From: an uncultured Thermoplasmatales archaeon | Lineage (GTDB): Archaea > Thermoplasmatota > Penumbrarchaeia > Penumbrarchaeales > Penumbrarchaeaceae | Direction: 5' to 3' | Assembly (NCBI GenBank): GCA_964445525.1 | Contig: CAYULA010000002.1 | Coordinates: forward strand, 34,576 to 98,575 | DNA length: 64,000 nucleotides | Part shown: positions 385-57,956 of the stretch, in pieces | How positions within the stretch are numbered: the stretch's first letter is position 1 | How the letters are laid out: each line of letters begins with the position of its first letter | Notes under the pieces: generated by a model | Databases searched by the model: none | What the model saw: the letters and a program-made list of their open reading frames with translations, nothing else | What the model was told of the DNA's origin: nothing | Made by a program: the position numbers and the translations under genes

Positions 385-1083
385 TTGTTTTCAAGGGGAC
401 GGATGATGCTCAAGGAATACCCTCTCGAGGATACACTGCTCAACGGATTCGAATTCCCTGTTGCGGTGGTCGTGGAAGTGACAAAACAGGGTATTGTACT
501 TTCCAAGATGAGATACCTCAAGGCTGTAGGAGACATCATCAACCAGACAATAAGATGTCCCATGATAACGGTTTACGCCCACATGGGAACCTTCAGGGAT
601 CCTCATCTTGCCTCGGACATGATCAGCCCCATGGGAGTGGACCTCATTTACCATTTCCAGATAGACAAACAATATTTCAACGAGACCATAGAGACCATCA
701 AGAGGGGGAGGGCCACTCTGAACTTCCACAATCCTCAGACCAGGGATATGGCAAGAGGCCTGATGGAGAAGATAATGAAAAAGGACAAGATCAACTTCAG
801 GAGGTTGTCGGCCCAGGAGCAGGGCCTGATCCTTGAACCCTATGTATTCTATCTCTTCCAGAGGATAGGTGAAGGCAAGAGGAACGTCTTACAAAACGTA
901 GAGCTCCTGGAAAGAGAGGGTATTCTCAAGTGCGAGATCGGAAACGACACACTCCGCTACAGACCGGCACCGGCTCCCACAATGGAGCTGGATATTCTGA
1001 TGTTCACCGATCTGAAGTATCTGCCATCAATTTTGAGAGGTCTTGAGTCTCACGGGTTCAAGCACGAGATACAGAGAGGATGA
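385..1083 (+). CDS. Hypothetical protein (232 aa). An alternative start at the MMLKEY... methionines (~403) is possible.
   Basis: Long ORF with ordinary amino-acid composition. I recognise no family. The competing ORF 369..836 in another frame is low-complexity and looks spurious. Confidence 0.4.
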   Translation: MFSRGRMMLKEYPLEDTLLNGFEFPVAVVVEVTKQGIVLSKMRYLKAVGDIINQTIRCPMITVYAHMGTFRDPHLASDMISPMGVDLIYHFQIDKQYFNETIETIKRGRATLNFHNPQTRDMARGLMEKIMKKDKINFRRLSAQEQGLILEPYVFYLFQRIGEGKRNVLQNVELLEREGILKCEIGNDTLRYRPAPAPTMELDILMFTDLKYLPSILRGLESHGFKHEIQRG

Positions 1084-1086
1084 CCC

Positions 1087-1332
1087 TCATATTATTCTGA
1101 CATCCTTGGCTCCCATCTCCCTTAGAGATGGAACGAGATTGTCGACTATGAAATCCATGTCGTCGGGAGAAGGACCTCTGGATGAAAGGTCGGCCACGAC
1201 GTTCATTTCCCTCAATCCCTTGAAACCCACCACCGCGTCAAGCTCCTCCTCGATCTGGGTAAGGGGATTTCCGCCTTTTCCCTTTCCAAAGAGTATATGA
1301 ACGGTGTCCCCTGACTGAGAAATGGTGAACAT
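1087..1332 (-). CDS. Small hypothetical protein (81 aa)
   Basis: Protein-like composition (MFTISQSGDTVHILFGKGKGGNPLTQIEE...). Sits between two real genes. No family recognised. Confidence 0.3.
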   Translation of the reverse strand: MFTISQSGDTVHILFGKGKGGNPLTQIEEELDAVVGFKGLREMNVVADLSSRGPSPDDMDFIVDNLVPSLREMGAKDVRII

Positions 1333-1397: not shown

Positions 1398-3863
1398 TCA
1401 GGCATTTCGATCAGGAGATATGTATATGTATGTGGATTTCCCGCTCTTTTTCACCACTATCTGTCCCTTCTCCTTGAGTGCCTTGATATTGTAGTTCACG
1501 GTGGAGTTTGACACCGAAAGTTCTTCTGATATCTCCTTCTGTGACAGGCCGGGTTTTACCTGTATGAGTTCGACAATTTTTTTCTGTATGGGGGATAGAC
1601 TTACCCTGTCCTCATCTATGTGGTATCCGGCCGGATAGAACCTTCTGTACAATCCGTCCCTCTGGCTCCTTATCAGGTTCTCCTTCTCGAGGGTGTAGAG
1701 GTGGTGGGCCAGGGTGCCGTTTGTAAGGTTCAGATTGACCAGTATTGCCCTGAAATGCTCTCCCGGATTGTTCTGGACATAGACGTATATCCTCTTTCTC
1801 AACCTGTTGGAGAGTAGATGCTCGGGTTTCAGTTTGCTGTATAGAGGGAAGAGACTGGCAAATAGCGGATATCTCACATATTCCGTGTTTATGAAAAGTA
1901 AAAGGGATGTCAGAACGATCGCTCCGCCACCGGCTGCCACCACAGCCGTGCTTGTCTCTATCTTTCCGCCCTCTCCCTCACCATCGGGATCGCCCGATCC
2001 CGATTTCACAGGGATCACGTTGATAGGTTCGGTCATGTCATTATCATCGTTGTCCGTCTCCTCGGACCCCTCGGGAGGCACAAGTATCGCCCTGATCTTC
2101 TGGGTTGAAGGCCTGGCGGACCAGTTGAATAATATTGTCATCTCCTCCCCCGAATTCAGCGAGACGGGTTTGGAGGAGACCTTGTTGTTGGAAAGTGAAT
2201 AGGATATCTCGTACAGTTCAAGGGTGAGCCCGCTCATGTCCAGATTTGAAGGGTTGTTTACGGTAACATTCACCTGTATGTTCTCCCCTTCGTCTATGGG
2301 TCTGTTCGGAAGAACAATTGAGGTAACCGCCACGTTGGGGAGCTCTATCATGGTAACCGGAACCACGAATTCGGTGGCAAGGACCCATTCCTTCTTGTCC
2401 TCCAGCGGGACCCTGATATCCACCTTGAAGGAGAATTCTAAGGGGACGTTTACGCTTTTGGGATACAGTATTATCTTGATATTGTTGAAATTGGAAGGGG
2501 CGAGATTGAAGGAATGATGATTGATATCGGATATGAAGCACGACGGTAGCTCTTCTAGGTCCAGTATGACCTGGGTTGATGATTCGCCGTCGTTGTGAAC
2601 CCTGAAATTGACGATTATGTCCGATCCCATTTTTGCCTCGCTCACCTCCAGATTGGAATACGAGATATTGGAATCGGAATTAACCACCACGGTCATCTTG
2701 CCTTCCACAACGTTTGCGTTGTCAGATTTTCCGTCAAGAATGATATCGAAGATCCCTGACCTGTTTCCGGGGGAGGCAACGTGCACGGTAACGGTCCTTG
2801 TCTCCCCCACTTCAAGGGTGTAGGATCCCCCTATGTCGAAAGTATAGTCCCAATCCATCTGCTGGAACGGACCTGAAAGAACCTTCAATTCCGGTTCGAA
2901 AGTGGAGGGTTTCACCCCGTTATGCATAAGATCGAACTGCAGGTGCATCTGCTCCCCGCTTCTGGATTCCACCATGGAATTGACGGGCTGGATGGATAGC
3001 GTTGAAGGATTTATGACCTTGAAATTGAAATCTATCCTGTCTGCACCCTTCCCCACTCCAAATAAGGAATACATCTCCGAAGCGGACCTGACAGATATTG
3101 TCTGGATATCCCCAACCTTGGCGGTTTCGGGAACACCGATCAGAAGCTTTGTAATGTATATGGTTCCGGACTGGAGATTCACCGTCTGGGACTGGTCCTC
3201 GTACTGGAATCTCGCCTCCCAGGATGATTGATGTTCCCCGATGGTGATCGTAATGTCATCTACCAGATCTCCCGGATTCCTCAAAAGGACCTCCATGTAG
3301 GTCCTCTGTCCGGGATAGACCTTGATCTCGACCTCCTTGCCCGAATCGGGATAGACAAGCAACTCGTGATCGACCTCCGCTTCCAGCCGAACCACAGCAA
3401 TTATGAATGCCCTGTCCCCGGTGAGATTTGCTATACCGTCGATCCGGATCTGGTATTCGCCCTCGGGATCCATCATGATGTTCTTGGGGATGGCTACATC
3501 CAGCAATATGGAGCTCCTCCCTTTTCCGGGGACCTGCACCGAACCGGTGACATAGACGTTCCAACCCTCCGGGGAAAGTAGTTCCATGATAACCGTTTGA
3601 TCCAGTTCATGGTCATTATTTACCCATATACTGTATTCCAGTTCGTCGCCCGGCGAAGCTGTCTTAACCGGATATCCGGCATCGGTAACATCGTCTCCCT
3701 CGTCGGCCTCCATGGTGATGGTTCCTTCGTTGATTTCCGCTCCGGAAACCGGATCCGCAATGATCATTGCCAGAAAGAACAGAGCCATAACTGAAAGGGC
3801 CAGTATGGAGGTCGCCTTACCGTTCATGTTATTCCAATCCTCCGTAAGACTATTTAAGCCCAT
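1398..3863 (-). CDS. Large single-pass membrane protein: extracytoplasmic multi-domain region, one TM helix, and a cytoplasmic C-terminal winged-helix (MarR/ArsR-like) DNA-binding domain. The real start is probably the internal Met at 3827 (MNGKATSILALSV..., signal/anchor-like).
   Basis: N-terminal hydrophobic signal. About 600 aa of Ig-like repeat-type sequence. A TM segment AVVAAGGGAIVLTSLLLFI. A C-terminal tail with a clear HTH (...IQKKIVELIQVKPGLSQKEISEELSVSNSTVNYNIKALKEKGQIVVKK...). Confidence 0.55.
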   Translation of the reverse strand: MGLNSLTEDWNNMNGKATSILALSVMALFFLAMIIADPVSGAEINEGTITMEADEGDDVTDAGYPVKTASPGDELEYSIWVNNDHELDQTVIMELLSPEGWNVYVTGSVQVPGKGRSSILLDVAIPKNIMMDPEGEYQIRIDGIANLTGDRAFIIAVVRLEAEVDHELLVYPDSGKEVEIKVYPGQRTYMEVLLRNPGDLVDDITITIGEHQSSWEARFQYEDQSQTVNLQSGTIYITKLLIGVPETAKVGDIQTISVRSASEMYSLFGVGKGADRIDFNFKVINPSTLSIQPVNSMVESRSGEQMHLQFDLMHNGVKPSTFEPELKVLSGPFQQMDWDYTFDIGGSYTLEVGETRTVTVHVASPGNRSGIFDIILDGKSDNANVVEGKMTVVVNSDSNISYSNLEVSEAKMGSDIIVNFRVHNDGESSTQVILDLEELPSCFISDINHHSFNLAPSNFNNIKIILYPKSVNVPLEFSFKVDIRVPLEDKKEWVLATEFVVPVTMIELPNVAVTSIVLPNRPIDEGENIQVNVTVNNPSNLDMSGLTLELYEISYSLSNNKVSSKPVSLNSGEEMTILFNWSARPSTQKIRAILVPPEGSEETDNDDNDMTEPINVIPVKSGSGDPDGEGEGGKIETSTAVVAAGGGAIVLTSLLLFINTEYVRYPLFASLFPLYSKLKPEHLLSNRLRKRIYVYVQNNPGEHFRAILVNLNLTNGTLAHHLYTLEKENLIRSQRDGLYRRFYPAGYHIDEDRVSLSPIQKKIVELIQVKPGLSQKEISEELSVSNSTVNYNIKALKEKGQIVVKKSGKSTYIYISPDRNA

Positions 3864-4020
3864 TAGTACAGGGATTGGATTGATTATTCTTATTGGTTTG
3901 CAAATTTATACTTTCTTGATCCGATTATTTTGTCCGTTTGTAAGAGCGCCGGAAAGGAAAATAATATAGTATTAAATCTCATCGGGAACCATCGACCCAG
4001 CTGGTCCAAGAGGTGTTCTC

Positions 4021-4461
4021 ATGTTTGAGGGTAAGGAGAGAATGGGCATGTTCTCCAGAACTATCGGAACGCGAATCAATTTGGTCCTCGGGATCATTGC
4101 CCTTATGATAATAATCGGGTCGCTCTCAGCACTGGTGTACAACGCCGCCAACACGAAATCAACAGATATCCTCACCGTGAACGGAAAGGAATATGATTGG
4201 GGGGCACTGGAAAGCGATTTCGACACAATGGAATCGGAGGGACACAGCGGAATACCCGTTGTTGATCTCCTGGAGGACGCCGGGATCGATGACCCGGAGG
4301 GCAGATCCTTCAGATTCACAGGGGCTGACGGCTACGAGAAGGAGGTCCCCTTCTCCGACATGGACAACGGAATGATCGATACAGATGAGAAGAAGGTCAT
4401 ATTTCCCGGACTTGCCAAGGCGTTCTGGGTGAGGGACCTCGTTGAGATAGAGGTGGTATGA
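4021..4461 (+). CDS. Membrane-anchored/secreted protein carrying one copy of a ~75-aa acidic repeat domain
   Basis: N-terminal hydrophobic anchor (LVLGIIALMIIIGSLSALV). Then a domain ending ...FPGLAKAFWVRDLVEIEVV, which recurs twice in the next ORF. The genes are only 1 nt apart, so this is the first gene of a + strand operon. Confidence 0.5.
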   Translation: MFEGKERMGMFSRTIGTRINLVLGIIALMIIIGSLSALVYNAANTKSTDILTVNGKEYDWGALESDFDTMESEGHSGIPVVDLLEDAGIDDPEGRSFRFTGADGYEKEVPFSDMDNGMIDTDEKKVIFPGLAKAFWVRDLVEIEVV

Positions 4462-4462
4462 G

Positions 4463-5188
4463 ATGAAAAGGAAAGCGGTTATGCCTTTAATCGGGATGGG
4501 CCTGATCCTACTCTCTGTAATCGTTCTGGGATGCACCGAAGAAGAAGATGAAGAAGAAGGTGTGGCAATAACGGTTGCCGGAGAGGAGGTTTCCCTGGAT
4601 GAGGTCTTCGACGATTACCAGATGAAGACCGTTTCTAGCGGAGGCAGCACTTACGAGGGTGTCTCTCTGAGCGATGTGATAAATGAAACCGCCCTAACAG
4701 ATCCTTCCGATTTGCAGTACAAGATCACGGCAAGCGACGGCTGGAATCAGGATGTGACCTGGGCTGATATGATGACGGGAGTCCTTGTTGAGGAGGAGAC
4801 CATGACAGCCTTCCCCAATCTTCCCGGAAAATACAGGATAAGGGATGTGGTCAAGATCGAAGCCGTGGATGCCGATACCATAGAGGTCAACGGTCATCTC
4901 TTCACTTGGAAACAGCCCTTCCACATCATTGACGAGACCGTCACCATGCAGGATGCGGAAAACAACACGATCGAGGGAATATACCTCTCCGATGTGGTCA
5001 ACATCACCGGTCTGACAGATCAGGGAACCCATGGTTATGACCTCCAGGCGGGTGACGGATACAACCAGACGGTGACCTGGGAGGACATGACGAAGGGACT
5101 TCTCGTGGAAGAGGAGAAAAAATGCTTCTTCCCGCATCTTTCCAAAAAATACCACGTTTCCGATATAATCAAGATAGAGGTGATATGA
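4463..5188 (+). CDS. Putative lipoprotein with two copies of the same ~75-aa repeat domain
   Basis: Signal peptide plus a lipobox-like VLGC followed by an acidic linker (TEEEDEEEG). Two repeats end ...FPNLPGKYRIRDVVKIEAV and ...FPHLSKKYHVSDIIKIEVI. The stop overlaps the next start (ATGA). Confidence 0.5.
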   Translation: MKRKAVMPLIGMGLILLSVIVLGCTEEEDEEEGVAITVAGEEVSLDEVFDDYQMKTVSSGGSTYEGVSLSDVINETALTDPSDLQYKITASDGWNQDVTWADMMTGVLVEEETMTAFPNLPGKYRIRDVVKIEAVDADTIEVNGHLFTWKQPFHIIDETVTMQDAENNTIEGIYLSDVVNITGLTDQGTHGYDLQAGDGYNQTVTWEDMTKGLLVEEEKKCFFPHLSKKYHVSDIIKIEVI

Positions 5189-5871
5189 AAATGTTAGAGA
5201 AGAGATCTGCCACGGAATACGGGATGATCGCAGCCGGGATAATCCTCCTTGGATCCATCTGGGGTCTGCTGGAATGCACCATCGGAGGTATGAAATGGGA
5301 GGTGGCCGGTCTCTACGTTTCCATGGGTGCTGTCATGGCGGGTCTTTTTGGACTTGCATTCATGATACTGGCCAGGAGAATATTCGATTTCCCGGGTGCC
5401 GCACTCTCGGTGGCTCTGGTCGCATCCCTATTGAGGTTCATCGCACCGGTTGGTTCATGCGTCATCTGTTCCGCCATAGCCATAGGTGTCGAAGGCCTCG
5501 TCTTCGAGATGATAGTAAGCAGGAAGGTGTTCCTGGGTAACCTCCGGGGAAGCAAGGATTTCAGGACCCTGGCCTTTCTCGGGGTCATCAGCGGATTCAC
5601 CGTTTTCACGGTGGGTTACATAACCACCCAGGTCCTAACGCCCGTCTTTACCGGGGGGACCCTTGTTGTAATGGATGTGGTTGACATCCTTCCGTTGATA
5701 GTGGGAAGGGCCTTTTATGCGGCGGTTCTGGGAGGAATATCCGTTCCGGTCATTGCTCTTTACGACAACCTCCATCTGGATGTTAGCAAATGGAACAAGG
5801 GTGCCTATTTCGCGGGTTCAACTGCCATAAGCGCTGTTTGCTGGATACTGGTGATATTCATTCTGTTCTGA
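5185..5871 (+). CDS. Polytopic integral membrane protein (~6 TM), function unknown. Possibly a transporter S-component-like protein.
   Basis: Start MKMLEK... overlaps the upstream stop. The sequence is hydrophobic throughout, and the gene is translationally coupled into the operon that continues into the ferredoxin and AOR genes. Confidence 0.45.
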   Translation: MKMLEKRSATEYGMIAAGIILLGSIWGLLECTIGGMKWEVAGLYVSMGAVMAGLFGLAFMILARRIFDFPGAALSVALVASLLRFIAPVGSCVICSAIAIGVEGLVFEMIVSRKVFLGNLRGSKDFRTLAFLGVISGFTVFTVGYITTQVLTPVFTGGTLVVMDVVDILPLIVGRAFYAAVLGGISVPVIALYDNLHLDVSKWNKGAYFAGSTAISAVCWILVIFILF

Positions 5872-5872
5872 G

Positions 5873-6331
5873 GTGTTGCAGATGACAGATACTGTAAAAA
5901 TAATAAAATTTCATCCGGATAAATGCAAGGGACACAGGGAATGCGAGAAGGCCTGTTCCCGGATCCATTTCAAATCCGACGAAGGTGGGGACAAGTCGGC
6001 CATCCACATAATCAAGACCGAGTCTGGTTACAAGATGGTCAACTGCAACCAGAACGGATTGTGTATGGATGTATGCCCGGTTCAGGCAATAAAAAGGCTT
6101 CCCAGCGGAGTGGTTACCGTCGATAAGAAGACCTGCATAGGATGCATGACATGTGTGGCATTCTGTCCCATGGACGGTATGAGAAGAGCCGAGGGCATGG
6201 TTGTTCCCCACAAATGCATCTCCTGCGGTGCATGCGTCAGGGCCTGTCCCGAGGGAGCTCTCGAACTGGTCGAGGTCAATATCAAGGACATAGAACAGAG
6301 GGTATACATTCATCAGGGGGTGTGCGAGTGA
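5873..6331 (+). CDS. Poly-[4Fe-4S] ferredoxin
   Basis: Two canonical CxxCxxCxxxCP motifs (CIGCMTCVAFCP, CISCGACVRACP) plus two more Cys clusters (CKGHRECEKAC, CNQNGLCMDVCP). Lies immediately upstream of AOR with a GTGA overlap. Confidence 0.8.
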   Translation: MLQMTDTVKIIKFHPDKCKGHRECEKACSRIHFKSDEGGDKSAIHIIKTESGYKMVNCNQNGLCMDVCPVQAIKRLPSGVVTVDKKTCIGCMTCVAFCPMDGMRRAEGMVVPHKCISCGACVRACPEGALELVEVNIKDIEQRVYIHQGVCE

Positions 6332-8682
6332 GCGGTAAATGCCTGAATCATGCAAGTACAGCGAGGACCATAGGAAGGGGAAACGGCCCCTTCGTTACCA
6401 ACAACACCGAGATAGAGGTGGATGTTGAAGGACTGAGGTCCGGCCACAAGGTCCTTGCAGAATACAAATACGACAAAAAACCAATCGAAAGGGGATATGC
6501 CGGCCGCCTTCTCCATGTCAACCTCACCGATCTAGAGTTCAGGGAGATACCCCTTGAAGAGGATGTCAAGGAGAAATTCACCGGAGGAAAAGGATTCGGC
6601 CTCAAGATGATGTGGGATCATATGGGACCGGATACCAGATGGAACGATCCGGAAAACATCCTGGCTCTGAACAGCGGCCCGATGAACGGAACCACCCAGT
6701 ATTCGGGAATGGGGAAAGCACTCTCCACAACCGTATCTCCCTCTACAGACATCATTTGCGATTCCAATGCGGGAGGATATTTCGCCCCCTACCTGAAATT
6801 CTGCGGATTCGATTCAATCTCCATTCAGGGAAAAGCGAAAGAGGATGTGGTCATTTTCATCGATGGGGTGGAAGGCAAGATCACCATCGAGACAGCACCC
6901 CACGAGGAGACCAACTCCCACATCCTTGCAGAGCAGTTGACCCGTATGTACGCAAAGGAGGATACCGAATCCTCCAGGCAGAAAGTGTCGGTGGTATCGG
7001 CGGGAAAAGGATCGGAGAACTCTTACTGGGGAATACTGAACATCTCGTTCTACGACCCGAGGAGGAAGGTCCCCAGGATAAAACAGCACGGCAGGGGCGG
7101 TCTCGGGACGGTACTGAGGGACAAGAAGGTCAAAGCCCTGGTATCCAGGATCGAGGGTTTCGGAGGAATGACCAATAATCCGGTTGATGTGGACAGGATC
7201 TCCAAGACCGGAATAAAGCATCACAGGGAGATCAGGGACCTCGACATGTACGAGAACAACATGAGAACCGTTGGAACCGGAAATCTCGTGGAGATCATGG
7301 ATGCCTACGATCTGCTTCCAACTGAGAATTACCGATTCGGAGGTTTCCCAAAAGCATCCAGGATATTTTCGACAAAATTCTATCACTATTTCACCCAGGG
7401 AATACCGGATGGATGCTGGTACGGATGCAACATCGCCTGTTCCAAGGCCGTTGACGGCTTTCTCCTGAAAACCGGCCCCTACAAGGGCAAGAGAGTGACC
7501 GTGGACGGTCCAGAATACGAGACCATAGCCGGCGGTTCCAACATGTCCATGTGGGATCCGGAGTGGATACTGGAGTTCAACTTCTACTGCGATACCTACG
7601 GCCTGGATACGATCTCCGCGGCCACCTCCATTGCATTCTACATGGAGATGTACGAATACGGAATACTGTCCAAGGAAAGATGCGACGGTCTGGAACTGTG
7701 CTTCGGCAATGCCCACGCCGTACTTGAGTTCCTTCACCGGATCGCATCCGGTGACAACAGCGAGTTCATCCAGGTGGCTTCCAAGGGCACCAGGAGAATG
7801 AAGGACTGGCTCAAGGAGAAAAAATGGGGAGTTCCGGACCTCATAGAGCATGCCGGAATGGAGATCAAGGGTTTGGAGTACTCCGAATATGTTTCAAAGG
7901 AATCCCTTGCGCAGCAGGGAGGCTTCGCACTTGCCACCAAAGGACCCCAGCATGACGAGGCCTGGCTTATCTTCATGGACATGGTCAACAATCAGATACC
8001 GACCTTCAAGGACAAGGCCGAGGCCCTTCACTATTTCCCCGTATGGAGGACCTGGTTCGGCCTTGTGGGCCTCTGCAAACTGCCCTGGAACGATATCGTT
8101 CCCGCAGACAACGCGGAAAAGGACGAACCCGCCAAGATTCCCGAACACGTTCAGAACTATGCGGATATCATGAGCGGAGTGACAGGCAAGGCAATAGGTC
8201 CCGATGATCTCATCGACCAGTCGGAAAGGGTCTACAACTGGCAGAGGGCCATGAGCGTCTGGATGGGAAAGGGAAGGAGGATACACGATATGCCTCCCTA
8301 CAGGTCCATGGGTCCTGTCACCGAGATGGAATACCTTTCCCGGGAGGAACGATACGACGGGCAGCTGAAAGACATCGTTGGCCTGGATGAGGAGACAATC
8401 GAGAAGATGTCCGTTCAGGACAAGATAGGTGTCCTCAGGGAATACAGATACGGTCAATATGAAAAGCTGGTGGATTCGGTCTATTACAGGAGGGGATGGA
8501 CACCCAACGGAGTACCGACTCCCGAGAAGATGAAGGAGCTGGGATTCTCCGACGAGAAGGAGATGCTGGACATTCTCCAGAAGGCCATAGACGATGATGA
8601 CGCAAACGGCCTCAACGTCTGGGGTGGGAAATATTCCGAAGGTGAGGATAAACCTTCAGATGACCAGAGATACTGGGAGTAG
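6328..8682 (+). CDS. aor: Aldehyde:ferredoxin oxidoreductase family (tungsten/pyranopterin enzyme), long variant (~784 aa) with a C-terminal extension
   Basis: The AOR N-terminal domain motifs GYAGRLLHVNLTD...KFTGGKGFG are present. The catalytic-domain motifs GLDTISAA and LVGLCKLPW (AOR DxxGxC(K/R)-type) are present. The likely start is GTG 6328, overlapping the ferredoxin stop. The ORF table extends it upstream to 6142. Confidence 0.75.
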   Translation: MSGKCLNHASTARTIGRGNGPFVTNNTEIEVDVEGLRSGHKVLAEYKYDKKPIERGYAGRLLHVNLTDLEFREIPLEEDVKEKFTGGKGFGLKMMWDHMGPDTRWNDPENILALNSGPMNGTTQYSGMGKALSTTVSPSTDIICDSNAGGYFAPYLKFCGFDSISIQGKAKEDVVIFIDGVEGKITIETAPHEETNSHILAEQLTRMYAKEDTESSRQKVSVVSAGKGSENSYWGILNISFYDPRRKVPRIKQHGRGGLGTVLRDKKVKALVSRIEGFGGMTNNPVDVDRISKTGIKHHREIRDLDMYENNMRTVGTGNLVEIMDAYDLLPTENYRFGGFPKASRIFSTKFYHYFTQGIPDGCWYGCNIACSKAVDGFLLKTGPYKGKRVTVDGPEYETIAGGSNMSMWDPEWILEFNFYCDTYGLDTISAATSIAFYMEMYEYGILSKERCDGLELCFGNAHAVLEFLHRIASGDNSEFIQVASKGTRRMKDWLKEKKWGVPDLIEHAGMEIKGLEYSEYVSKESLAQQGGFALATKGPQHDEAWLIFMDMVNNQIPTFKDKAEALHYFPVWRTWFGLVGLCKLPWNDIVPADNAEKDEPAKIPEHVQNYADIMSGVTGKAIGPDDLIDQSERVYNWQRAMSVWMGKGRRIHDMPPYRSMGPVTEMEYLSREERYDGQLKDIVGLDEETIEKMSVQDKIGVLREYRYGQYEKLVDSVYYRRGWTPNGVPTPEKMKELGFSDEKEMLDILQKAIDDDDANGLNVWGGKYSEGEDKPSDDQRYWE

Positions 8683-8687
8683 AGACG

Positions 8688-9302
8688 GTGAAACACCGGA
8701 CACTAACCGGGCCCCATGATAAAAACAGGGTGGCTGAGAGACTCCGGGATTCCTATGTAGGCATAGCCGGCGCCGGAGGCCTCGGATCCAATGTGGCAAT
8801 GTCTCTGGCCAGGGCGGGAGTCGGCCGTCTGCTCATAGCGGATTTCGACAGGGTCGAGGAATCCAATCTCAACAGGCAGTATTTCTTTCTGGATCAGGTG
8901 GGCATGTACAAGGTGGATGCACTCAAGAAGAATATTCAAAAAGCGGTCAGGGACTGCAAGGTTGAGGTCCTGAACAGGAAGCTCGAAAGAGGATCAATGG
9001 CAGCTCCTTTTTCTGAAGTCGATGTGATCGTGGAAGCCCTGGATTCGGCCTCGGTCAAGGTTGCTTTCATAGAGGAGGTCCTGACCGAATTTCCCGAAAA
9101 GCACCTCGTGGCCGCATCTGGAGTGGCAGGAATAGGCGGTTCGAACAGGATAGTTCAGAAGGACCTTGGAAATCTCATATTGGTTGAGGACCCTCAGGCG
9201 CTTTCAAGTGATGTGGAAGTTCTGCTTTCCCCCAAGGTGGGTCAATTCGCGCATCATCAGGCAAACATAGTCCTCCAGCTTCTCCTGGAGGGTGATAGAT
9301 GA
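8688..9302 (+). CDS. ThiF/MoeB/HesA-family E1-like adenylyltransferase
   Basis: Glycine-rich nucleotide-binding motif GIAGAGGLGSNVAMSLARAGVGRLLIADFDRVEESNLNRQ. Confidence 0.65.
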   Translation: MKHRTLTGPHDKNRVAERLRDSYVGIAGAGGLGSNVAMSLARAGVGRLLIADFDRVEESNLNRQYFFLDQVGMYKVDALKKNIQKAVRDCKVEVLNRKLERGSMAAPFSEVDVIVEALDSASVKVAFIEEVLTEFPEKHLVAASGVAGIGGSNRIVQKDLGNLILVEDPQALSSDVEVLLSPKVGQFAHHQANIVLQLLLEGDR

Positions 9303-10812: not shown

Positions 10813-11784
10813 ATGGTAGTAGATGAAGACCCCGGCATGATTCGGAAGAAGCAGAGGTCCGACAGGGTCCAGATAGAGGAGACAACCACCTGTCCGGAGT
10901 GCGGAAGCGATCACATAATACGGGATTACGAGAGGGGGGAACTGGTTTGCGGGGACTGCGGTATTGTGATCAACGATCTCCAGATAGACATGGGCCCCGA
11001 ATGGAGAGCCTTCGACTCTGTCCAGACCGAACAGAGGGCAAGAACGGGAGCCCCGATGACCCTTACGATACACGACAAGGGTCTTTCAACGGAGATAGGC
11101 TGGAAGAACAAGGATTCCTACGGAAAGTCCATTCCCACCAGGAACAGGGCCCAGATGTACCGGCTCAGGAAATGGCAGAGAAGGATAAGGGTTTCCAACG
11201 CAACAGAGAGAAACCTGGCCTTCGCCCTTTCGGAACTTGACAGGATGGCGGCGGGAATCGGTCTTCCCCGGAATGTCAGGGAGACCGCCGCGAGGATCTA
11301 CAGGAACGCGGTGAACAAGAACCTGATCAGGGGAAGGTCCATAGAGGGAGTTGTGGCCTCCTCGATCTATGCGGCCTGCAGGCAGTGCAACGTTCCGAGG
11401 ACCCTGGACGAGATCGCATCGGCCTCGAGGGTGGGAAGGAAGGAGATCGGGAGAACCTACCGGTTCATGACAAGGGAGCTCGACATGAGGCTCATGCCCA
11501 CATCACCTCAGGATTATATCTCCAGGTTCTGCTCGGAGCTGAAGCTCTCGGGAGAGACCCAGACAAAGACAATGGAGATCCTCAAGCAGGCGGACGAGAT
11601 GGAGATAACCTCGGGCAGAGGACCCACCGGCATGGCGGCAGCGGCGATCTACATAGCCTCCATAATGACAAACGAGAGGAGGACCCAGAGAGAGGTTGCG
11701 GATGTTGCCGGTGTGACGGAGGTCACCATCAGGAACCGCTACAAGGAGCTTGCGGACAAACTCGGCATCGATCTTGAGATCTGA
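10813..11784 (+). CDS. tfb: Transcription initiation factor TFB (TFIIB homologue)
   Basis: N-terminal zinc ribbon [24 protein letters not shown], followed by two cyclin-fold repeats (...[14 protein letters not shown]..., ...[17 protein letters not shown]...). Confidence 0.9.
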
Positions 11785-11846: not shown

Positions 11847-12337
11847 TATGAAAAATGAGCAAAGTAGCTCTCTTTTTTTCATATTTCCGCAATGCAGAGT
11901 ATACAATTGACGCTCTGTTTTGACCTTGGAATTGTTGATCTTTGAAAAATTTTATTCTAATTCCAAGGCATGCACAATGGTTTCTCTTATTAACGATCCA
12001 TTGGTGCTGTGGTGTGAAATTGCGATGCAAATAAAAAAATGACGCGAGTAATTTACGAGCTCCTTGAAAAGGAGTGACTTACGAAAAAACTCGCTTGTTA
12101 TTTTTCATGCTATGTTGTGAAAAGCAGTTCATGAGAGTTTTTTTTATAACCTGATTCTATTTATATTTTTAACAATTTAACTGAATAATACGATCCCTCT
12201 CTCCTCCATGGAAATGAAGCAGCAAAATTGCTTTAGGGGAGTAGATAGATAACATCCTAATGATATGAAATTTGATCAAGCAAGGTTGCATCTGAATATT
12301 ATATGGCCATTGAAAGGAAAATAACAAGGAAGATATT

Positions 12338-13828
12338 ATGACATCGAAGCTACCCATTAATCTTGAGGACCTCCTTCATCAGAGAAAAGTAGAGGGGGAC
12401 CGGATCGAATACAAGGCCGGATGGAATCCCGATTCAATTATGAGAACACTATGCGCCTTCGCAAATGATTTCGAGAACATTGGGGGAGGCTACATTGTTA
12501 TAGGTCAGGATACTGATGAAGATGGGAGACCGGTTTTTCCGCCTGTCGGTTTATCAGACAGTCTACTTGATAGGATTCAGCGCGAACTAATTGGATTTTG
12601 CAATCAGATCCAGCCAACCTACTTTCCGGTTTTAAGCTTGGAAGTGTTCCAAGACAAGAATCTTATCGTCTTATGGGCTCCCGGAGGCCAAAATCGTCCC
12701 TATAAGGTTCCAGAATCAGTAATATCAAAGAAAAAGTTACATAAATATTATATTCGACGCTTCACCAGTACTATAGTGGCAAAGGGTGAGGATGAACATG
12801 AATTGCTAAGTCTCACAGCAAAGGTTCCCTTTGATGACAGGTACAATCAAAATGCATCGATTGAGGATCTTTCTGTTTTATTGATGTGGGATTTTCTGAA
12901 AAAAGTAGGAAGTGAATTAGCTGAGGGGGCCAGAAACCTTGGTCATGGTGAAATTGGACTTCAGATAAATGTGGTTGGAGGACCTCCAGAGGCATTATTG
13001 CCGAAAAATGTTGGATTGCTTTTTTTTAACGAAGATCCCGAAAAGTTCTTCCCGGCAACTCAGATAGATGTGGTTTGGTTTCCAGAGGGTCCAGGTGGAG
13101 ATAGATTCGATGAAAAGATTTTCAAAGGACCTTTGGACCGAATTGCCCGAGATGCATTGAGTTATATCCAGATCAATTATCTGAAACAGACTATTATCAA
13201 GCATCCCGATAGGGCTGAGGCTGACCGATTTTGGAATTATCCCTATGTTGCAATAGAAGAAGCTGTAATAAATGCCGTTTACCATCGTTCATACGAGATT
13301 AGAGAGCCAATAGAAATCCGGATAACACCGGAGGATCTATTGGTTTTGAGTTTTCCAGGTCCCGATCGATCAATCAAAATGGAGGACCTTCAAAAAGGTA
13401 AAGCAGTTAGTCGCCGTTACAGGAACAGGCGTATCGGAGATTTCCTTAAGGAATTGGAGTTAACCGAGGGAAGGTCTACAGGGATCTCGAAGATATTAAA
13501 AGTTATACAAAAGAATAAATCTCCTTTACCCGAATTCGAAACCGATGATGATAGAAGCTATTTCATCATCAGGTTCCCGGTCCAACCGGATACGATTTCA
13601 GAAGAAGAAACGGAAAAAAGTTCGGAAAAAAGTTCGGAAAAAAGTTCGGAAGGGATCATGAACTTCATGAGGGTGAATCCAAAAATCACAATATCTGAGT
13701 TGTCTGCTGAGATTGGAATTACTACTAGAGCTATTGAAAAACAGATTGCAAAATTGAAAGCTGAAAAGAAAATTGAAAGAATTGGACCATTAAAAGGTGG
13801 ATACTGGAAAGTGAATTTGGACAAATAA
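12338..13828 (+). CDS. AlbA_2 (Schlafen-like 'divergent AAA') plus HATPase_c_4 family putative transcriptional regulator. Often annotated as RecG-related.
   Basis: N-terminal AlbA_2-type motif (...RIEYKAGWNPDS...LCAFANDFENIGGGYIVIGQD...). HATPase_c_4 motif (...IEEAVINAVYHRSYE...). C-terminal HTH (ISELSAEIGITTRAIEKQIAKLK). The gene is visibly AT-richer than its flanks. Confidence 0.65.
   Translation: MTSKLPINLEDLLHQRKVEGDRIEYKAGWNPDSIMRTLCAFANDFENIGGGYIVIGQDTDEDGRPVFPPVGLSDSLLDRIQRELIGFCNQIQPTYFPVLSLEVFQDKNLIVLWAPGGQNRPYKVPESVISKKKLHKYYIRRFTSTIVAKGEDEHELLSLTAKVPFDDRYNQNASIEDLSVLLMWDFLKKVGSELAEGARNLGHGEIGLQINVVGGPPEALLPKNVGLLFFNEDPEKFFPATQIDVVWFPEGPGGDRFDEKIFKGPLDRIARDALSYIQINYLKQTIIKHPDRAEADRFWNYPYVAIEEAVINAVYHRSYEIREPIEIRITPEDLLVLSFPGPDRSIKMEDLQKGKAVSRRYRNRRIGDFLKELELTEGRSTGISKILKVIQKNKSPLPEFETDDDRSYFIIRFPVQPDTISEEETEKSSEKSSEKSSEGIMNFMRVNPKITISELSAEIGITTRAIEKQIAKLKAEKKIERIGPLKGGYWKVNLDK
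13611..13646 (+). repeat. Three perfect tandem copies of the 12-bp unit CGGAAAAAAGTT inside the coding sequence (encodes SEKS-SEKS-SEKS)
   Basis: Direct reading: cggaaaaaagtt appears three times, then cggaaggg. Confidence 0.9.
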
Positions 13829-14039
13829 TATTATGAAAATTCGTATAGGAATCAAATCTATCAAATTTAATTTATTAATATTACTATTTGTGTAACTAGA
13901 GATTAAATCACTTAATCCTTTGTTCACTCTGAAATTCTCTTACCATTGGTTGGAGATTTGTAAAAATCTTATTTATTGAACAACAATGACGAATATTTCA
14001 GATTCGGAAAAATTCCGGTAAAAACTCCGGTAAAATAAG

Positions 14040-33997: not shown

Positions 33998-34025
33998 GGG
34001 GGCTTCTTTCGAGGCCCCTTTTTTT
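33998..34025 (+). terminator. GC hairpin (GGGGC ... GCCCC) followed by T7 just after the stop of the 31383..33971 gene
   Basis: ccgggggcttctttcgaggcccc followed by ttttttt. Confidence 0.45.
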
Positions 34026-34125
34026 ATGTACATTTACAAGTAATGTTTATAAATAAAAAGATGTTTTTAATTAAGTCCAGTGTCCTGTAATTGAGGGCAG
34101 GAACAACTCTGATGGGTGAGGGAAG

Positions 34126-37100
34126 ATGAAACGAGAGGTATTCGCGGTACTGATTACATTCGGATTGTTATTGGTAACTGGAGAATCAGTTTTCGGTATA
34201 ATTGCCGAAAATGAGGATATTGAACCCATGATTCCAGAATTTGATTTTCAGTTTTCAGGAGGAAATGGGACCAAAATCAATCCATACAAAATCTCGAACA
34301 TAACGGAGCTCCAATGGATGGGAAATACGTCGAATCTGGATAAACATTTCATTTTTATAAACGATATCAATGCATCCGCAACTTTAACCTGGAATGGAGG
34401 AAATGGATTCGATCCGGTTGGTGATTCAAGCAACCGCTTCGATGGCTCGATTAACGGCAATGGTTACAAAATAATAAATTTATTAATAAACAGATCGAGT
34501 GATGACTTTGTAGGGTTGGTAGGTGATCTTGGAGTAACAGGATATCTCTCCAATATCACAATGCTAAATGCCTCGATAAATGGCGAGGACATTTGCGGAA
34601 TTCTTGCTGGCAGATCTTTCAAAGGAACAATTCATAATTGCTCCGTAAACGGATCGGTGAAAGGATCAACAAATATCGGAGGTTTGGTTGGCAGAAACCA
34701 TGAAGGAAAAATTTCAAATTGCTTTTCTGGTTGTAATGTAATCGGGAGGGGACAGAAAATTGGAGGTATGGTAGGTTATAATGAAGATGCAAAAACTTTT
34801 GAAAACTGTAGTTCAAGATCTTATGTTAAGGGAACTGAAAATGTTGGAGGATTGATTGGAGATAATGAAGGATCATTTATTGAATGGTCGAATTCAACAT
34901 CCATGGTGATTGGAACCGGAGCTGTGGGAGGTTTAATCGGGTATAATCATTTTTATTCAAGAATTACTAATTGTCATTCGAGATTTGAAATAAATTCCAC
35001 AAGAGATAATATTGGAGGACTTATCGGGAAGAATCAAAACAACTGTCCAATATTCCACAGTGGTTCAATTGGAAAAATAAATGGTAGGAATCAACTTGGA
35101 GGAATTGCAGGTTACAACAATCAAAAAATCATCAATTCATCCTCAGAGGTTGAAATAACAGGTCAAAGTATGATTGGAGGTTTAGTAGGAGAAAATCATG
35201 GAGAAATAAGGAATTGCACGGCTGATGCTGAAATTGAAGGTGTCCAAAGATTAGGAGGATTGGTTGGTGATGGTAGGGACAAATCGATTTATGATAGTAT
35301 ATCTTATGGAAATGTTACAGGAACCACTTACTATATCGGAGGATTTGTAGGTGGTATTATTTCGATTGATGTAATCAATTGTCGATCATATGCTAATGTT
35401 AATTCAACAGGAGAATATGTTGGTGGATTTGCGGGTTATCCAAGTTTATCTAATATAAAGAATAGTTTATCCGATTGTGAAGTAAAGGGAGAAACCAACG
35501 TGGGAGGTTTTTTAGGTGTAAACTCTTATTGTATCATTGAAAATTGTCATTCATTTGGATGGGTTAACAGTACAAAGGATTATACTGGCGGTTTCATAGG
35601 ATTGAATTTAGGTACGATATCAAATTGTTCCTCCCTTTCAAATGTTAACGGAAAGAAATCCACTGGAGGTTTAATTGGAAAGAACAATAATAATTATGAA
35701 ATTAAGGAATGTTTCTCCAATGGTAATGTTACAGGAACCGATTACATAGGTGGTTTAATTGGTGAGAATTACGGTAAAATCTTGAATTGTTATTCTCAAG
35801 GTGGTGTGAATGGACCTATGAATAAATTGGCATATTTTGGTGGTTTATTAGGATATAATAACGGTAGAGTAACAAATTCGTATTCCACAGGAAAAGTAAC
35901 CGGAACATTTAGGAAAGGATTCATTGGTGATAATTACGGAACAGTTCAAAATAGCTTTTGGGACTATGAATCTTCAGGAGTTACATATAGTGACGGTGGA
36001 ACAGGAAAAAACTCTTCCGAGATGAAATCTCAGAACACATTTTCATCAGCAGGATGGGATTTCAACGAAACCTGGTACATTATTGAAGATGAAACCTATC
36101 CAATGTTATCCAATAATTTAATGGATTATTCCGTTCCGGTATTTCTTGATGATTATACAAATATTTCAGGGTCTACCGGGACCAATTTTACCTTTAACAT
36201 TAGTGTAACAGATAATATTGGTTTAAGTTTTGTAATGGTAGAATTCTGGTATGGCAATGGTTCGCATTTAGAAAAACAATTGAAGCTCAATAATACATAT
36301 AAAACCTTTACTGAATTGCCCGTTAATTCCACTGATACCCTATATTATTTTTTTCACGCAAGAGATTTCAAGGGAAATACTAATTCTACACCAATAAAAA
36401 ATGTAACAATCAATGATATTTTGATCCCGTTTTTTAGTAATGAAACAACACAAAATAATGGTACGACCGGTGATCAATTTCAATTCAAGATATATGCATA
36501 TGACAATATCGGTATCCAGAACGTATATTTGGAATATTGGTCAAACTTCACAAAGAAAACTAATGTTTCCATGGAGGAAAACGGTTATTTTATCAAAAAT
36601 ATACTTTTACCCTCCAATGTAACAAATATCTCTTATCAGTTCCATGCAGTGGATTTATCTTTCAATTGGAAAAGCACAGATGTAAAAACTTTATTAGTAT
36701 TGGATAACGACAAACCTCTATTTGGTAAGGACCTCACTGCTGATAACTGGACAACAGGAGATATTGTCGAATTTTCCATTATTGTACAGGATAATATCAA
36801 TGTCAATAGTGTCAAAATAGAATACTGGTTCGGTTCGGGACCTCGATTCAATGAATCCATGGTTTTCGATTCTGGATCCTATACCTTCGATCTCATGATC
36901 CCCCCGGATTCGCTTGATCAGCTTCACTACATCTTCCATGCGGTGGATACCTCGGGCAACTGGAACAGGACCGATCAGATCGATGTGGCTGTTCTGGATG
37001 ATGATAGACCAATCTTTGGTATGGATGGATCTGCGGTTCTGGGAACCACAGGTGAACAGTACCGTTTCGGAATCGGAGTGGTTGACAATATCGGTATCGA

Positions 37101-56030: not shown

Positions 56031-57956
56031 TCACCTCAGCCTGAATGTTTCGAGGTTCAATGGTATGGTGGTGGTCATGCCGTATTTTCTATGCAATGAG
56101 GATGCAAGGTCCATCTCCTTGGTCTCGTCGCCGTGATGGATTATAATCCGATCGGGTTTTGGATCCATTGTCGAGATGTAGTTGATCAACTGCTTGCGGT
56201 CGGAGTGGCCTGAGAATCCGTCAACGGTCTCCGCATCTATCTTCAGACTGACGGACATGGGCTTGCCCTTCTCCGATATCATCAGCTCCTTCATGCCCTT
56301 CTGTATCTTCCTGCCCAGGGTGCCTTCCGCCTGGTAACCGACGAACACCAGAGTGTTCCTCGGGTCAGCTCCCCAGTATTTGAGATACTCCATTACCGGA
56401 CCTCCGTTGAGCATACCTGAGGTGGCCAGGACCACGGCCGGTTCGCTATCGTGTATGATCCTGTCCCTCATGTCCCTTGAATCCACCTTCTGGAAGAATT
56501 CCGAAAGGAAGGGATTCTCGTTGCGCTGAAATATCTGTGTCCTGAGCTGATTGTTGAGGAACTCGGGATAGGCGGTATGAATGGCGGTGGCCTCCCATAT
56601 CATTCCGTCCAGGTAGATCGGTGCCCTGGGGATCTGACCGTTCTTCATCTGTTTCTCCAGGACTATCATGACCTCCTGGGACCTCCCCACTGCAAACACG
56701 GGGACAAGGACCTTGCCTCCCCTGGAGAGGGTCCTCTTCATGACGTTCCTCATCTGGGTAGCGGCTTCCTTCCTGGTGGGCTGGAAGTCCCTTCTACCGC
56801 CGTAGGTGGATTCCATCACAAGCGCCTCCAATCTGGGGAACTTGTTCGTGGCGGAATTGAACAGCCAGGTTCTCTCGAACTTTATATCACCCGAATACGC
56901 TATGTTGAAGAGACCGTCGCCCACATGGAAATGGGGAGATGCCGAACCCAGGATATGACCCGCGTTGTGAAGTGTCAGCCTGATGTCCGGTGCTATGTCG
57001 GTGGTTTCGTTGTATTTGATGGGTATCGTGTGAAGTATCTCATCCTGAACGTGTTTGGATTCGTAAGGTGGCCTCTTACCTTCGGCCACGGCGACCTTGA
57101 TGTAATCCAGCTGCAGAAGGGCCATCATGTCCCTGGTGGGAGCTGTACAGTAGATCGGCCCGTCGAATCCATACTTGTACATAAGGGGAACCAGGCCGGA
57201 ATGGTCCAGATGAGCGTGTGTGAGGACCACCGCATCGATGGAATCGAATGGCTGGACCTCCGCCATCTGCAGATATGGAGATGGATGGTCCTGTGATCCG
57301 ACGTTCACTCCGATGTCTATTATCACCTTGGAATTCCTGGTGGTCAGCATGTGGCAGGACCTGCCCACTTCCCTGTAGCCTCCGAGACTCGTGGTCCTGA
57401 CCCAGTTCTCGTCATCGGGAATGTCACGGAAGATCCTCCTTCCGACCTTTTTCAGGAAATTCTTCCTCTTTTCGGTCACACCCGGTTCCTTGAGGAACTG
57501 CCTTATGTCCTTGACACTTTTGGATTCGATTGGAGGTGTCCTGACAACAAGCGGGGCCCATCCGGTCCTTTTCTTGATGTCGTTGAGATTGGAACCGTGC
57601 TTGCCTATGGCAAGACCGGGAGAGAGGGCTTCTATGGTAACCTCGTTGGAATCATGATTGAAGGCAACATCGGTGATCTTTGCCTCGTCGGGTATGATCT
57701 CCTTGATTATCTCGCTTGCCTCGTTTACATCCTTGACCAGGGAGGAATGGGGTCTGATCGCTACCCTCCTCTTAAGTCCCTGGGCAAGTTTCCTGACCAG
57801 ATTGGAATCGTACACGAACTCGTCCATGCTCCTCGTCTTGATCACTACCACAGGTCCCTCGAAATCGACCTCGGTGATCTCCACACCTTCGGGCACTATC
57901 GATTCCACATCGGCCTTGATACGCTTTATAAGGGCCTCATAACTCGTTTTAACCAC
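56031..57956 (-). CDS. aCPSF1 / FttA (KH-KH-metallo-beta-lactamase-beta-CASP ribonuclease; archaeal transcription termination factor)
   Basis: Two N-terminal KH domains. The MBL motif VVLTHAHLDHSGLVP. beta-CASP motifs. Length 641 aa. Confidence 0.85.
   Translation of the reverse strand: MVKTSYEALIKRIKADVESIVPEGVEITEVDFEGPVVVIKTRSMDEFVYDSNLVRKLAQGLKRRVAIRPHSSLVKDVNEASEIIKEIIPDEAKITDVAFNHDSNEVTIEALSPGLAIGKHGSNLNDIKKRTGWAPLVVRTPPIESKSVKDIRQFLKEPGVTEKRKNFLKKVGRRIFRDIPDDENWVRTTSLGGYREVGRSCHMLTTRNSKVIIDIGVNVGSQDHPSPYLQMAEVQPFDSIDAVVLTHAHLDHSGLVPLMYKYGFDGPIYCTAPTRDMMALLQLDYIKVAVAEGKRPPYESKHVQDEILHTIPIKYNETTDIAPDIRLTLHNAGHILGSASPHFHVGDGLFNIAYSGDIKFERTWLFNSATNKFPRLEALVMESTYGGRRDFQPTRKEAATQMRNVMKRTLSRGGKVLVPVFAVGRSQEVMIVLEKQMKNGQIPRAPIYLDGMIWEATAIHTAYPEFLNNQLRTQIFQRNENPFLSEFFQKVDSRDMRDRIIHDSEPAVVLATSGMLNGGPVMEYLKYWGADPRNTLVFVGYQAEGTLGRKIQKGMKELMISEKGKPMSVSLKIDAETVDGFSGHSDRKQLINYISTMDPKPDRIIIHHGDETKEMDLASSLHRKYGMTTTIPLNLETFRLR

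Follow-up and report, generated by a model that had tools for sequence, protein, structure and literature searches.

A putative single-pass transcription regulator with tandem winged helices, and a promoter motif shared by its family, in a Thermoplasmatales archaeon

Within a 64,000 nucleotide stretch of DNA from an uncultured Thermoplasmatales archaeon (contig CAYULA010000002.1, positions 34,576 to 98,575), hereafter the window, the coding sequence (CDS) at 1398-3827 on the reverse strand encodes a large membrane protein. The best explanation of the data as a whole, held with moderate confidence, is that this is a type-I single-pass transmembrane transcription regulator (TTR) with tandem ArsR-like winged helix-turn-helix (wHTH) domains, which would regulate its own gene through a bipartite element next to the TATA box. 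The open reading frame (ORF) list confirms the longest form of this gene, 821 aa at 1398-3863 (-), which was the basis of the original prediction of a membrane-spanning regulator at this locus, and residue numbers throughout are those of the 821 aa version. The true start is probably M13 rather than M1, giving a protein of 809 aa from the ATG at 3827, because the ATG at 3863 sits inside the conserved TATA box. That box, CTTAAATAG, is at 3850-3858 (-), 24 nt upstream of the ATG at 3827, and the equivalent of M13 is the first residue in P0002 and in all of the orthologues. The transcription start site, as placed by the general geometry of archaeal promoters, implies that the regulator mRNA is leaderless or nearly so.

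By hydropathy there are just two strong hydrophobic segments in the 821 aa protein, at aa 17-39 and aa 637-660, in agreement with the predicted N-terminal signal or anchor and single transmembrane (TM) helix around residue 640. The first, with a Kyte-Doolittle peak of 2.48 at aa 17-36, lies within a signal peptide or uncleaved N-terminal anchor at 3741-3827 (-) (aa 13-41, MNGKATSILALSVMALFFLAMIIADPVSG). This N-terminus, made up of MNGK, a hydrophobic core, and ADPVSG/AE, looks like a Sec signal peptide with a putative cleavage site at VSG/AE, and 41 of 54 representatives of the protein family described below also have a hydrophobic peak at the N-terminus. The second segment is the TM helix itself, at 1884-1955 (-) (TSTAVVAAGGGAIVLTSLLLFINT), which has a hydrophobicity of 2.32, is Gly-rich in its outer half (AAGGGA), and is modelled as a helix by AlphaFold2 (residues 5-26 of the C-terminal model). 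The ~595 residues between the two segments carry a net charge of -49, the cytoplasmic tail is basic, with a net charge of +10 over the last 156 residues, and the TM helix is flanked by 2 K/R versus 12 D/E just before it and 6 K/R versus 1 D/E just after it. Because this pattern follows the positive-inside rule, the wHTH module is placed in the cytoplasm, as had been predicted, although the tail is ~161 aa long and not ~170. The same asymmetry is seen in 50 of the 54 family representatives, where the mean charge per 100 aa is -7.4 for the ectodomains and +5.5 for the cytoplasmic tails. This establishes the architecture and the logic of the topology.

The extracytoplasmic domain (1956-3740 (-), aa 42-636) is acidic and all-beta, which bears out the expectation of a large beta-rich portion outside the membrane. 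AlphaFold2 models residues 37-583 entirely as beta-strands, in about 5-6 immunoglobulin (Ig)-like beta-sandwiches and at moderate confidence; this full-length model was built from 6 sequences, has a mean predicted local distance difference test (pLDDT) score of 61.5, and renders the first winged helix poorly. When compared with the PDB by Foldseek, the ectodomain matches generic tandem Ig-like arrays only (hydin ASH domains, the KIT ectodomain, titin, cadherins). A borderline Pfam match to CARDB covers aa 518-610, its 23.0 bits being just above the cutoff of 22.7, and NPCBM_assoc and FixG_C matches are also found in the ectodomains of orthologues. The C-terminal end of the ectodomain is an acidic linker (EETDNDDND...GDPDGEGEGG), where pLDDT falls below 30 over model residues ~586-625 (aa ~598-637) and which is probably disordered. 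Glycosylation sequons, which had been listed as a feature of this region, number 5, versus 5.6 +/- 2.2 in shuffled sequences; the count is at chance level and the sequons were dropped as evidence about the ectodomain.

Between the TM helix and the first winged helix is a juxtamembrane segment at 1827-1883 (-) (aa 661-679, EYVRYPLFASLFPLYSKLK), which is predicted to be helical, corresponding to residues 29-45 of the C-terminal AlphaFold2 model. It carries the family motif E..Y.......PLYSKLK, in which P41, L42, and Y43 are invariant or nearly so in alignments A1 and A7. The possibility that this is an amphipathic helix lying in the plane of the membrane is unsupported, the hydrophobic moment (muH) being 0.08.

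The cytoplasmic tail had been described as containing one MarR/ArsR-like wHTH. Such a domain is present, but it is the second of two in the Pfam results, where PF24266 is followed by HTH_24. Winged helix 1 (1632-1826 (-), aa 680-744) is ArsR-like, with the recognition helix TNGTLAHHLYTLEKE and the wing RDGLYRRFYP. The match to PF24266 (HTH_HVO_0163_N) covers aa 688-749 (2.5e-15, 56.7 bits against a cutoff of 31), a PDB sequence match is to 5duk, a putative DNA-binding protein (1.5e-6), and the domain is nearly invariant among the orthologues. Winged helix 2 (1419-1592 (-), aa 758-815), with the recognition helix SNSTVNYNIKALKEKG, matches HTH_24 over aa 757-802 (1.7e-18, 66.3 bits against a cutoff of 21.9), with overlapping matches to MarR (1.1e-7), HTH_5 (3.4e-6), HTH_20, and others. 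For the C-terminal 189 residues, AlphaFold2 with a 23-sequence alignment returns a pLDDT of 85.7 and gives, in order, the TM helix, the PLYSKLK helix, and two canonical winged helices, each of three helices and a beta-hairpin, with a 13-residue linker between them. Within this model wHTH1 has the order H-H-H-beta-beta with pLDDT ~95, and wHTH2 has pLDDT 90-96. Foldseek also gives single-domain matches, to wHTH1 or wHTH2, for CzrA, ArsR, and SmtB, with a root mean square deviation of ~1 A over ~60 residues and 22-30% identity. The residues of the recognition helices and wings (NG..HL, RRF, NY) are the most conserved positions. While the identities of the two domains are clear from these matches, DNA binding by the tandem module is what their sequences would suggest, and the pair may form a pseudo-dimer that mimics the ArsR homodimer.

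The C-terminal module defines a large family. When the C-terminal 189 aa were searched exhaustively with HMMER against representative proteins, there were 6,731 matches at E<1e-3, of which 2,578 had E<1e-10 and 150 had E<1e-30. In the best 150 the module is nearly always at the extreme C-terminus of proteins of 173-1,726 aa, and in most of the 36 of these that were inspected it is directly preceded by a TM helix, with an N-terminal hydrophobic segment being usual. PF24266 and HTH_24 are both present in 62 out of 62 representatives tested, and the domains found N-terminal to them are varied (CARDB in 22, NPCBM_assoc in 14, Big_9 in 12, FG-GAP in 11, He_PIG in 11, PKD in 10). Variable ectodomains joined to a constant C-terminal module are what would be expected of receptors that share one output. 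The window protein belongs to it, since alignments A1 and A7 contain its TM helix, its PLYSKLK motif, and its PF24266 and HTH_24 domains at the extreme C-terminus. Almost all of the genome loci (59/60) are from metagenome-assembled genomes labelled as Thermoplasmatota, Thermoplasmata, Thermoplasmatales, Methanomassiliicoccales, or Methanobacteriota archaeon, and several genomes contribute two family loci. In public records the annotation of these proteins is either "hypothetical protein" or "winged helix-turn-helix transcriptional regulator".

Full-length homologues of the regulator were found in metagenomes at 54-99% identity, and 17 genome loci (L003-L019) have orthologues of ~811-833 aa, down to 35% identity, with uninterrupted architecture. 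The word-index searches for homologues returned 6, 18, and 5 proteins, and the third, which was alignment-based, gave nothing useful for the structure alignment. As the orthologues and the best 150 family representatives share a continuous architecture, the possibility that the ORF is a fusion artefact, or contains a frameshift near nt 1900, is ruled out. Between orthologues, identity is 62-85% in the C-terminal module versus 27-66% in the ectodomain, with invariant recognition helices, which shows strong purifying selection on the wHTH module and ectodomains that evolve fast.

Some family loci are unusual. The only locus with a label that is not archaeal, L060 (JAJPHT010000007.1, "Proteobacteria bacterium"), has the module at 35% identity and is probably on a mis-binned archaeal contig, or possibly the result of transfer. 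A family gene appears to be split in L003 (8957-10570), where homology continues upstream of a 463 aa C-terminal ORF, and another in L029 (3402-5727), where the first of two ORFs (270 aa and 485 aa) is preceded by the promoter motif; the probable causes are frameshifts or errors of assembly, though the genes could be pseudogenes. In L023, L025, L026, L027, L033, L034, and L036, an ORF of ~1,800 aa that runs in the opposite direction to the family gene lies one or two genes downstream of it.

Upstream of the regulator, abutting the TFB recognition element (BRE)/TATA, is the bipartite motif AATCCAA-N5-GTACTA at 3864-3881 (-), with half-site 1 at 3875-3881 and half-site 2 at 3864-3869. All of the 17 orthologous promoters share CAtTcCAA-N-TGTACTA-N5-TTTAAATA, in which TTTAAATA is invariant, and the rest of the intergenic DNA is unconserved, apart from a GGATT element downstream of the TATA box that is conserved among orthologues. 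In the window GTACTA-N6-TTAAATA occurs once. In the 15 orthologous loci with an exact match, TGTACTA-N6-TTAAATA occurs once per locus, before the gene, and it is in none of the 43 paralogue loci. At least 8 paralogue groups, whose ectodomains are unrelated, nevertheless have a related element, gATTCGAA-N4-GTACCA, 3-9 nt before a TATA-like box. When both variants are combined in one strict pattern, ATTCSAA-N4-5-GTACYA, there are 32 matches on the two strands of 961 kb, whereas block shuffles contain 1-8 (about 5 on average). Some 30 of these matches are at the 5' end of a family gene, on the coding strand, and they include groups outside those that defined the pattern (L026/L030/L033, L044, L046, L050, L061). 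No strict match was found at the promoters of other genes in the examined loci, roughly a thousand genes by estimate, and the motif is therefore not a general promoter feature. These distributions identify a family-specific promoter motif, which lends indirect support to the suggestion that transcription is regulated from the membrane.

The centres of the half-sites are ~10.5 bp apart, about one helical turn, a spacing that would suit a tandem pair of wHTH domains lying along the same face of the DNA. Positions abutting the BRE/TATA are where activators and repressors act in archaea, and the bipartite motif is a candidate operator for autoregulation. Palindromes in the intergenic region had been proposed as candidate operators, and there is indeed a perfect 8 bp inverted repeat at 3833-3879 (TCCAATCC / GGATTGGA, with arms at 3833-3840 and 3872-3879), which brackets the TATA box and has its downstream arm between the TATA box and the start codon. 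It was matched in 4/500 shuffles, and the corresponding repeat has a length of 11 bp in L002 and of 6-7 bp in several other loci. Although significant in the window and in L002, it was rejected as a universal operator, being absent from many orthologues and of uncertain significance overall. A wider regulon in the window was also considered, but the relaxed matches at 12752 (within a CDS) and 54897, and a strict match at 57652 that has no TATA box, were judged to be due to chance.

On this evidence, a model can be proposed for how the regulator may work. A Sec signal peptide would export a ~595 aa stalk of Ig-like beta-sandwich domains, while the Gly-rich TM helix and the PLYSKLK segment would hold the wHTH pseudo-dimer close to the membrane on its cytoplasmic side. 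Contact between the ectodomain and an extracellular macromolecule or surface could change the oligomeric state or conformation of the receptor, which would alter the binding of the tandem wHTH domains to ATTCSAA-N4-5-GTACYA, each wHTH occupying one half-site and both lying on the same face of the helix. Bound beside the BRE/TATA, they might help or block recruitment of transcription factor B (TFB) and TATA-binding protein (TBP), resulting in autoregulation, and they might also act on the promoter of the back-to-back operon described below, ~85-105 bp away. DNA binding by the protein, the role of the motif as its operator, the nature of the signal, the sign of the regulation, and whether the action is tethered or released are parts of this model that we infer.

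Several observations weigh against the model. About 17 of the 37 paralogue loci with a complete 5' end have no motif match, the motif pattern was refined after some of the sequences had been inspected, and the motif could be the site of a different regulator shared by these genes. Searches of the literature on HVO_0163, COG3398, PF24266, and Thermoplasmatota TTRs yielded no published description of the receptor family. In the C-terminal model the geometry between the two domains is unreliable, with a predicted template modelling score (pTM) of 0.47. The tether from the membrane to wHTH1 is very short, ~20 aa, which may hinder access to a promoter. Pfam, AlphaFold2, and Foldseek reveal no recognisable ligand-binding sensor domain in the ectodomain, only Ig-like sandwiches. 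In addition, when the whole module is used in Foldseek the matches are to tandem winged-helix proteins at E~1e-5 to 1e-4 (ESCRT-II Vps25/Vps22, TFIIIC, RPC62, SelB, ScpB), and the best of these (ESCRT-II, ScpB, SelB, RPC62) are scaffolds that do not bind DNA sequence-specifically.

These last matches, with ESCRT-II Vps25/Vps22, ScpB, and RPC62 at the top, would be expected if the protein is not a transcription factor at all but a surface adhesin or envelope protein whose winged helices are a protein docking module, or a non-specific tether between nucleoid and membrane. The absence of a small-molecule sensor domain from the Pfam and Foldseek results would fit this too, as would the adhesin- or envelope-type domains in the ectodomains of the family (CARDB, PKD, FG-GAP, Big_9) and the neighbourhoods of the paralogues, which have no consistent theme of the kind expected of a regulon; no common theme was seen among the paralogue loci, where Peptidase_M20 and TPR genes occur in a few. 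All of the sequence-profile matches, however, are to DNA-binding wHTH families and are above the curated cutoffs, the tail is basic and conservation is greatest in the recognition helices and wings, and a pure scaffold would leave the bipartite motif at the family's own promoters unexplained. A docking or tethering role is considered quite unlikely.

The short tether could also be accounted for by regulated proteolysis of the kind known from Notch, SREBP, and RsgI, in which engagement or shedding of the ectodomain would lead to intramembrane cleavage and a soluble tandem-wHTH fragment would then bind the sites. With only ~20 residues from membrane to wHTH1, promoter access by a tethered module would be awkward, and the acidic and probably disordered linker before the TM helix would suit a site-1 cleavage. 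Substrates of intramembrane proteases typically carry helix-destabilising residues such as Gly, and here the TM helix is Gly-rich (AAGGGA), with a mean of 2.5 Gly per TM helix across family representatives. A Gly-rich TM helix is equally compatible with helix-helix dimerisation, however, and the loci examined contain no protease gene linked to the family. The strong conservation of PLYSKLK suggests a function at the membrane, and tethered TTRs such as ToxR and CadC do bind DNA (PMC10629549, PMC5430869). Release by proteolysis is hinted at by the Gly-rich TM helix and the very short tether, but is considered rather improbable.

The gene is divergent from an operon at 4021-9302 (+), which the original prediction had named as a possible target. 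Its products, as assigned with Pfam, are two exported repeat proteins (146 aa and 241 aa), a polytopic membrane protein (226 aa), a polyferredoxin, a tungsten-type aldehyde:ferredoxin oxidoreductase (AOR), and a ThiF-like protein, and it may encode a membrane-associated AOR complex. The operon has a promoter block (AAGGAAA...TATAG) at 3954-3969 (+), identified by alignment of five orthologous intergenic regions, with a GAGGTG Shine-Dalgarno sequence at 4010-4015 and an ATG at 4021. The exported proteins (4021-5188 (+)) contain one and two copies of a ~100 aa repeat that is weakly similar to the molybdopterin-oxidoreductase domain (PF00174) and to the "GEGP diheme" model, and the 241 aa protein has a lipobox-like LGC after its signal peptide.

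If the protein were a dedicated regulator of this operon, inducing it in response to an extracellular substrate or a redox cue, the divergent genes and the ~100 bp between the promoters would be readily explained. The divergent adjacency itself is as predicted, and a divergent AOR adjoins the regulator in 10 of 19 orthologous loci, another three of the 19 being too short to judge. L001-L005 retain the operon arrangement, with identities of 52-68%, although it is complete only in L002-L004, the other contigs being cut, and in six more distant orthologues AOR alone is adjacent, at ~35-37% identity (L009, L012, L014, L016, L018, L019). In six orthologous loci, on the other hand, no AOR was found (L007, L008, L010, L011, L013, L015), five of these having a parvulin-like gene and a TFB gene in its position according to the ORF calls, although neither the regulator nor its promoter motif has changed in these loci. 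The conserved cis-motif accompanies the regulator gene and not the AOR operon, whose own conserved promoter block has no second copy of it. Synteny extends over the whole block, which contains TFB, the regulator, the convergent gene p232, and homocitrate-synthase-like genes, and the adjacency of AOR is weak evidence since it may simply be inherited. The most constant neighbour is instead p232 (406-1083 (+), 225 aa, MLKEYPLED...), which is present in every orthologous locus and, at 58-96% identity, is better conserved than the regulator; neither Pfam nor NCBIfam assigns this conserved Thermoplasmatota protein to a family. The AOR operon is possible as a target but not established as one, and a regulator dedicated to it seems doubtful.

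The TFB (TFIIB-like) gene of the syntenic block is at 10813-11784 (+) in the window, and a TFB gene is within a few kb upstream of the regulator in orthologous loci L008, L012, L013, and L015. On the other side, 65 nt downstream of the regulator, is an 81 aa ORF, p81 (1087-1332 (-)), which has no family match and may or may not be a real gene; it was rejected as a conserved partner, being found only in L002 (65% identity) and, weakly, in L008 (30%). Elsewhere in the window there are two low-GC islands, at 12001-14000 (0.38) and 34001-36000 (0.36), versus ~0.51 in the rest, which may be foreign or mobile DNA. The first of these contains a 496 aa ORF (12338-13828) with C-terminal residues that look HTH-like by eye.

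The original prediction described the topology as ToxR-like and such proteins as rarely described in archaea. Like ToxR, CadC, and TcpP, the regulator combines extracytoplasmic input and cytoplasmic winged-helix output in one polypeptide with a single TM helix (PMC10629549, PMC5430869, PMC10269533). The topology, however, is the mirror image: ToxR and CadC are N-in/C-out with an N-terminal wHTH, whereas here a signal peptide and N-terminal ectodomain precede a C-terminal wHTH module, as in a type-I protein. Their output is one OmpR/PhoB-type wHTH (Trans_reg_C) and here it is two ArsR-like wHTH domains, their periplasmic sensor is compact and here there is a ~595 aa Ig-like array, and their partner is sigma-70 RNA polymerase, whereas in this archaeal host the partners would be TBP and TFB. 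Trans_reg_C is not among the 25 best of the 30 Pfam families that match the regulator at E<=1, and, without it and with the topology reversed, the regulator is placed outside the ToxR family.

As for archaea, the experimentally studied membrane-bound regulators are ArnR and ArnR1 of Sulfolobus acidocaldarius (PMC6396743), and to that extent the earlier statement stands. It does not stand for genomes, a census having listed 1,384 archaeal TTRs in 367 of 404 species (PMC10269533), to which is added the large Thermoplasmatota family described here. The window protein has what the operational definition of a TTR in that census requires, a DNA-binding domain above cutoffs and a TM helix (aa 637-660). 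ArnR and ArnR1 are likewise archaeal, membrane-bound, and HTH-containing, and act on promoters of surface-structure genes (PMC6396743). They differ, in a comparison of architecture, in being crenarchaeal, in lacking tandem wHTH domains, and in having the opposite domain order. In ArnR an N-terminal cytoplasmic HTH is combined with a HAMP-like region and C-terminal TM helices, and a large ectodomain is essentially absent.

Each of the wHTH domains resembles the fold of the ArsR/SmtB proteins (CzrA, SmtB, ArsR), with the recognition-helix pattern S/T-x-S/T-x-x-x-H-L and domain-level Pfam matches to HTH_5 (27.3 against a cutoff of 22) and HTH_20 (27.0 against 27). The ArsR/SmtB proteins are small, soluble homodimers with metal or metalloid sites, whereas here there are two non-identical domains in one membrane-anchored chain. 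The ArsR/MarR-type matches in NCBIfam are all sub-threshold, including NF033788 HTH_metalloreg at 38.6 bits, below its cutoff of 55, and the only Cys of the regulator is C442 in the ectodomain. Being below the curated cutoff and having no Cys in the cytoplasmic module, it is not considered to be a true ArsR/SmtB metalloregulator. In HVO_0163 of Haloferax volcanii, classed as an ArsR-type transcription protein that becomes more abundant under hypochlorite stress (PMC10294847), there is a likeness through PF24266, of which wHTH1 is a significant member, this sharing being known for wHTH1 only.

A broader analogy is with the RsgI-type anti-sigma factors of cellulolytic clostridia and with Notch-type receptors. 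These are single-pass receptors in which a constant transcription-control module is joined to variable modules that bind extracellular macromolecules, and they are often autoregulated. They are unrelated to the present family in sequence, and their output is different, being the sequestration of a sigma factor or the release of a co-activator, and dependent on proteolysis.

TTRs as a class were already known in archaea, and automatic annotation already calls this gene a wHTH regulator. What had not been described is the type-I layout with its tandem-wHTH output, how large the family is, and that its promoters share a motif. If binding is not confirmed, the gene stays an ordinary auto-annotated "wHTH regulator". 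The locus is a testable system, in that it offers a cytoplasmic module, an 18 bp candidate operator beside a TATA box, and paralogues with varied ectodomains and half-sites. In 11 genomes of the Thermoplasmata there are 3 histidine kinases and 4 response regulators (PMC5847659), and because these archaea are almost without two-component systems the family is a plausible main route of transmembrane signalling in the phylum. More tentatively, and as a possibility that is less likely than the model for the single protein, there may be a Thermoplasmatota-wide receptor superfamily (at least 2,500 clusters at E<1e-10) that senses extracellular polymers or surfaces, with adhesin-like ectodomains that are interchangeable in the members examined and a constant output on a common operator, serving as the main signalling device and as a counterpart, possibly a proteolytic one, of RsgI and Notch. 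If the interpretation is true, it would show how a tethered factor interplays with the TBP/TFB machinery and would provide modular receptor parts for archaeal synthetic biology, and a major signalling family would have come to light in sediment archaea that are abundant and uncultured.

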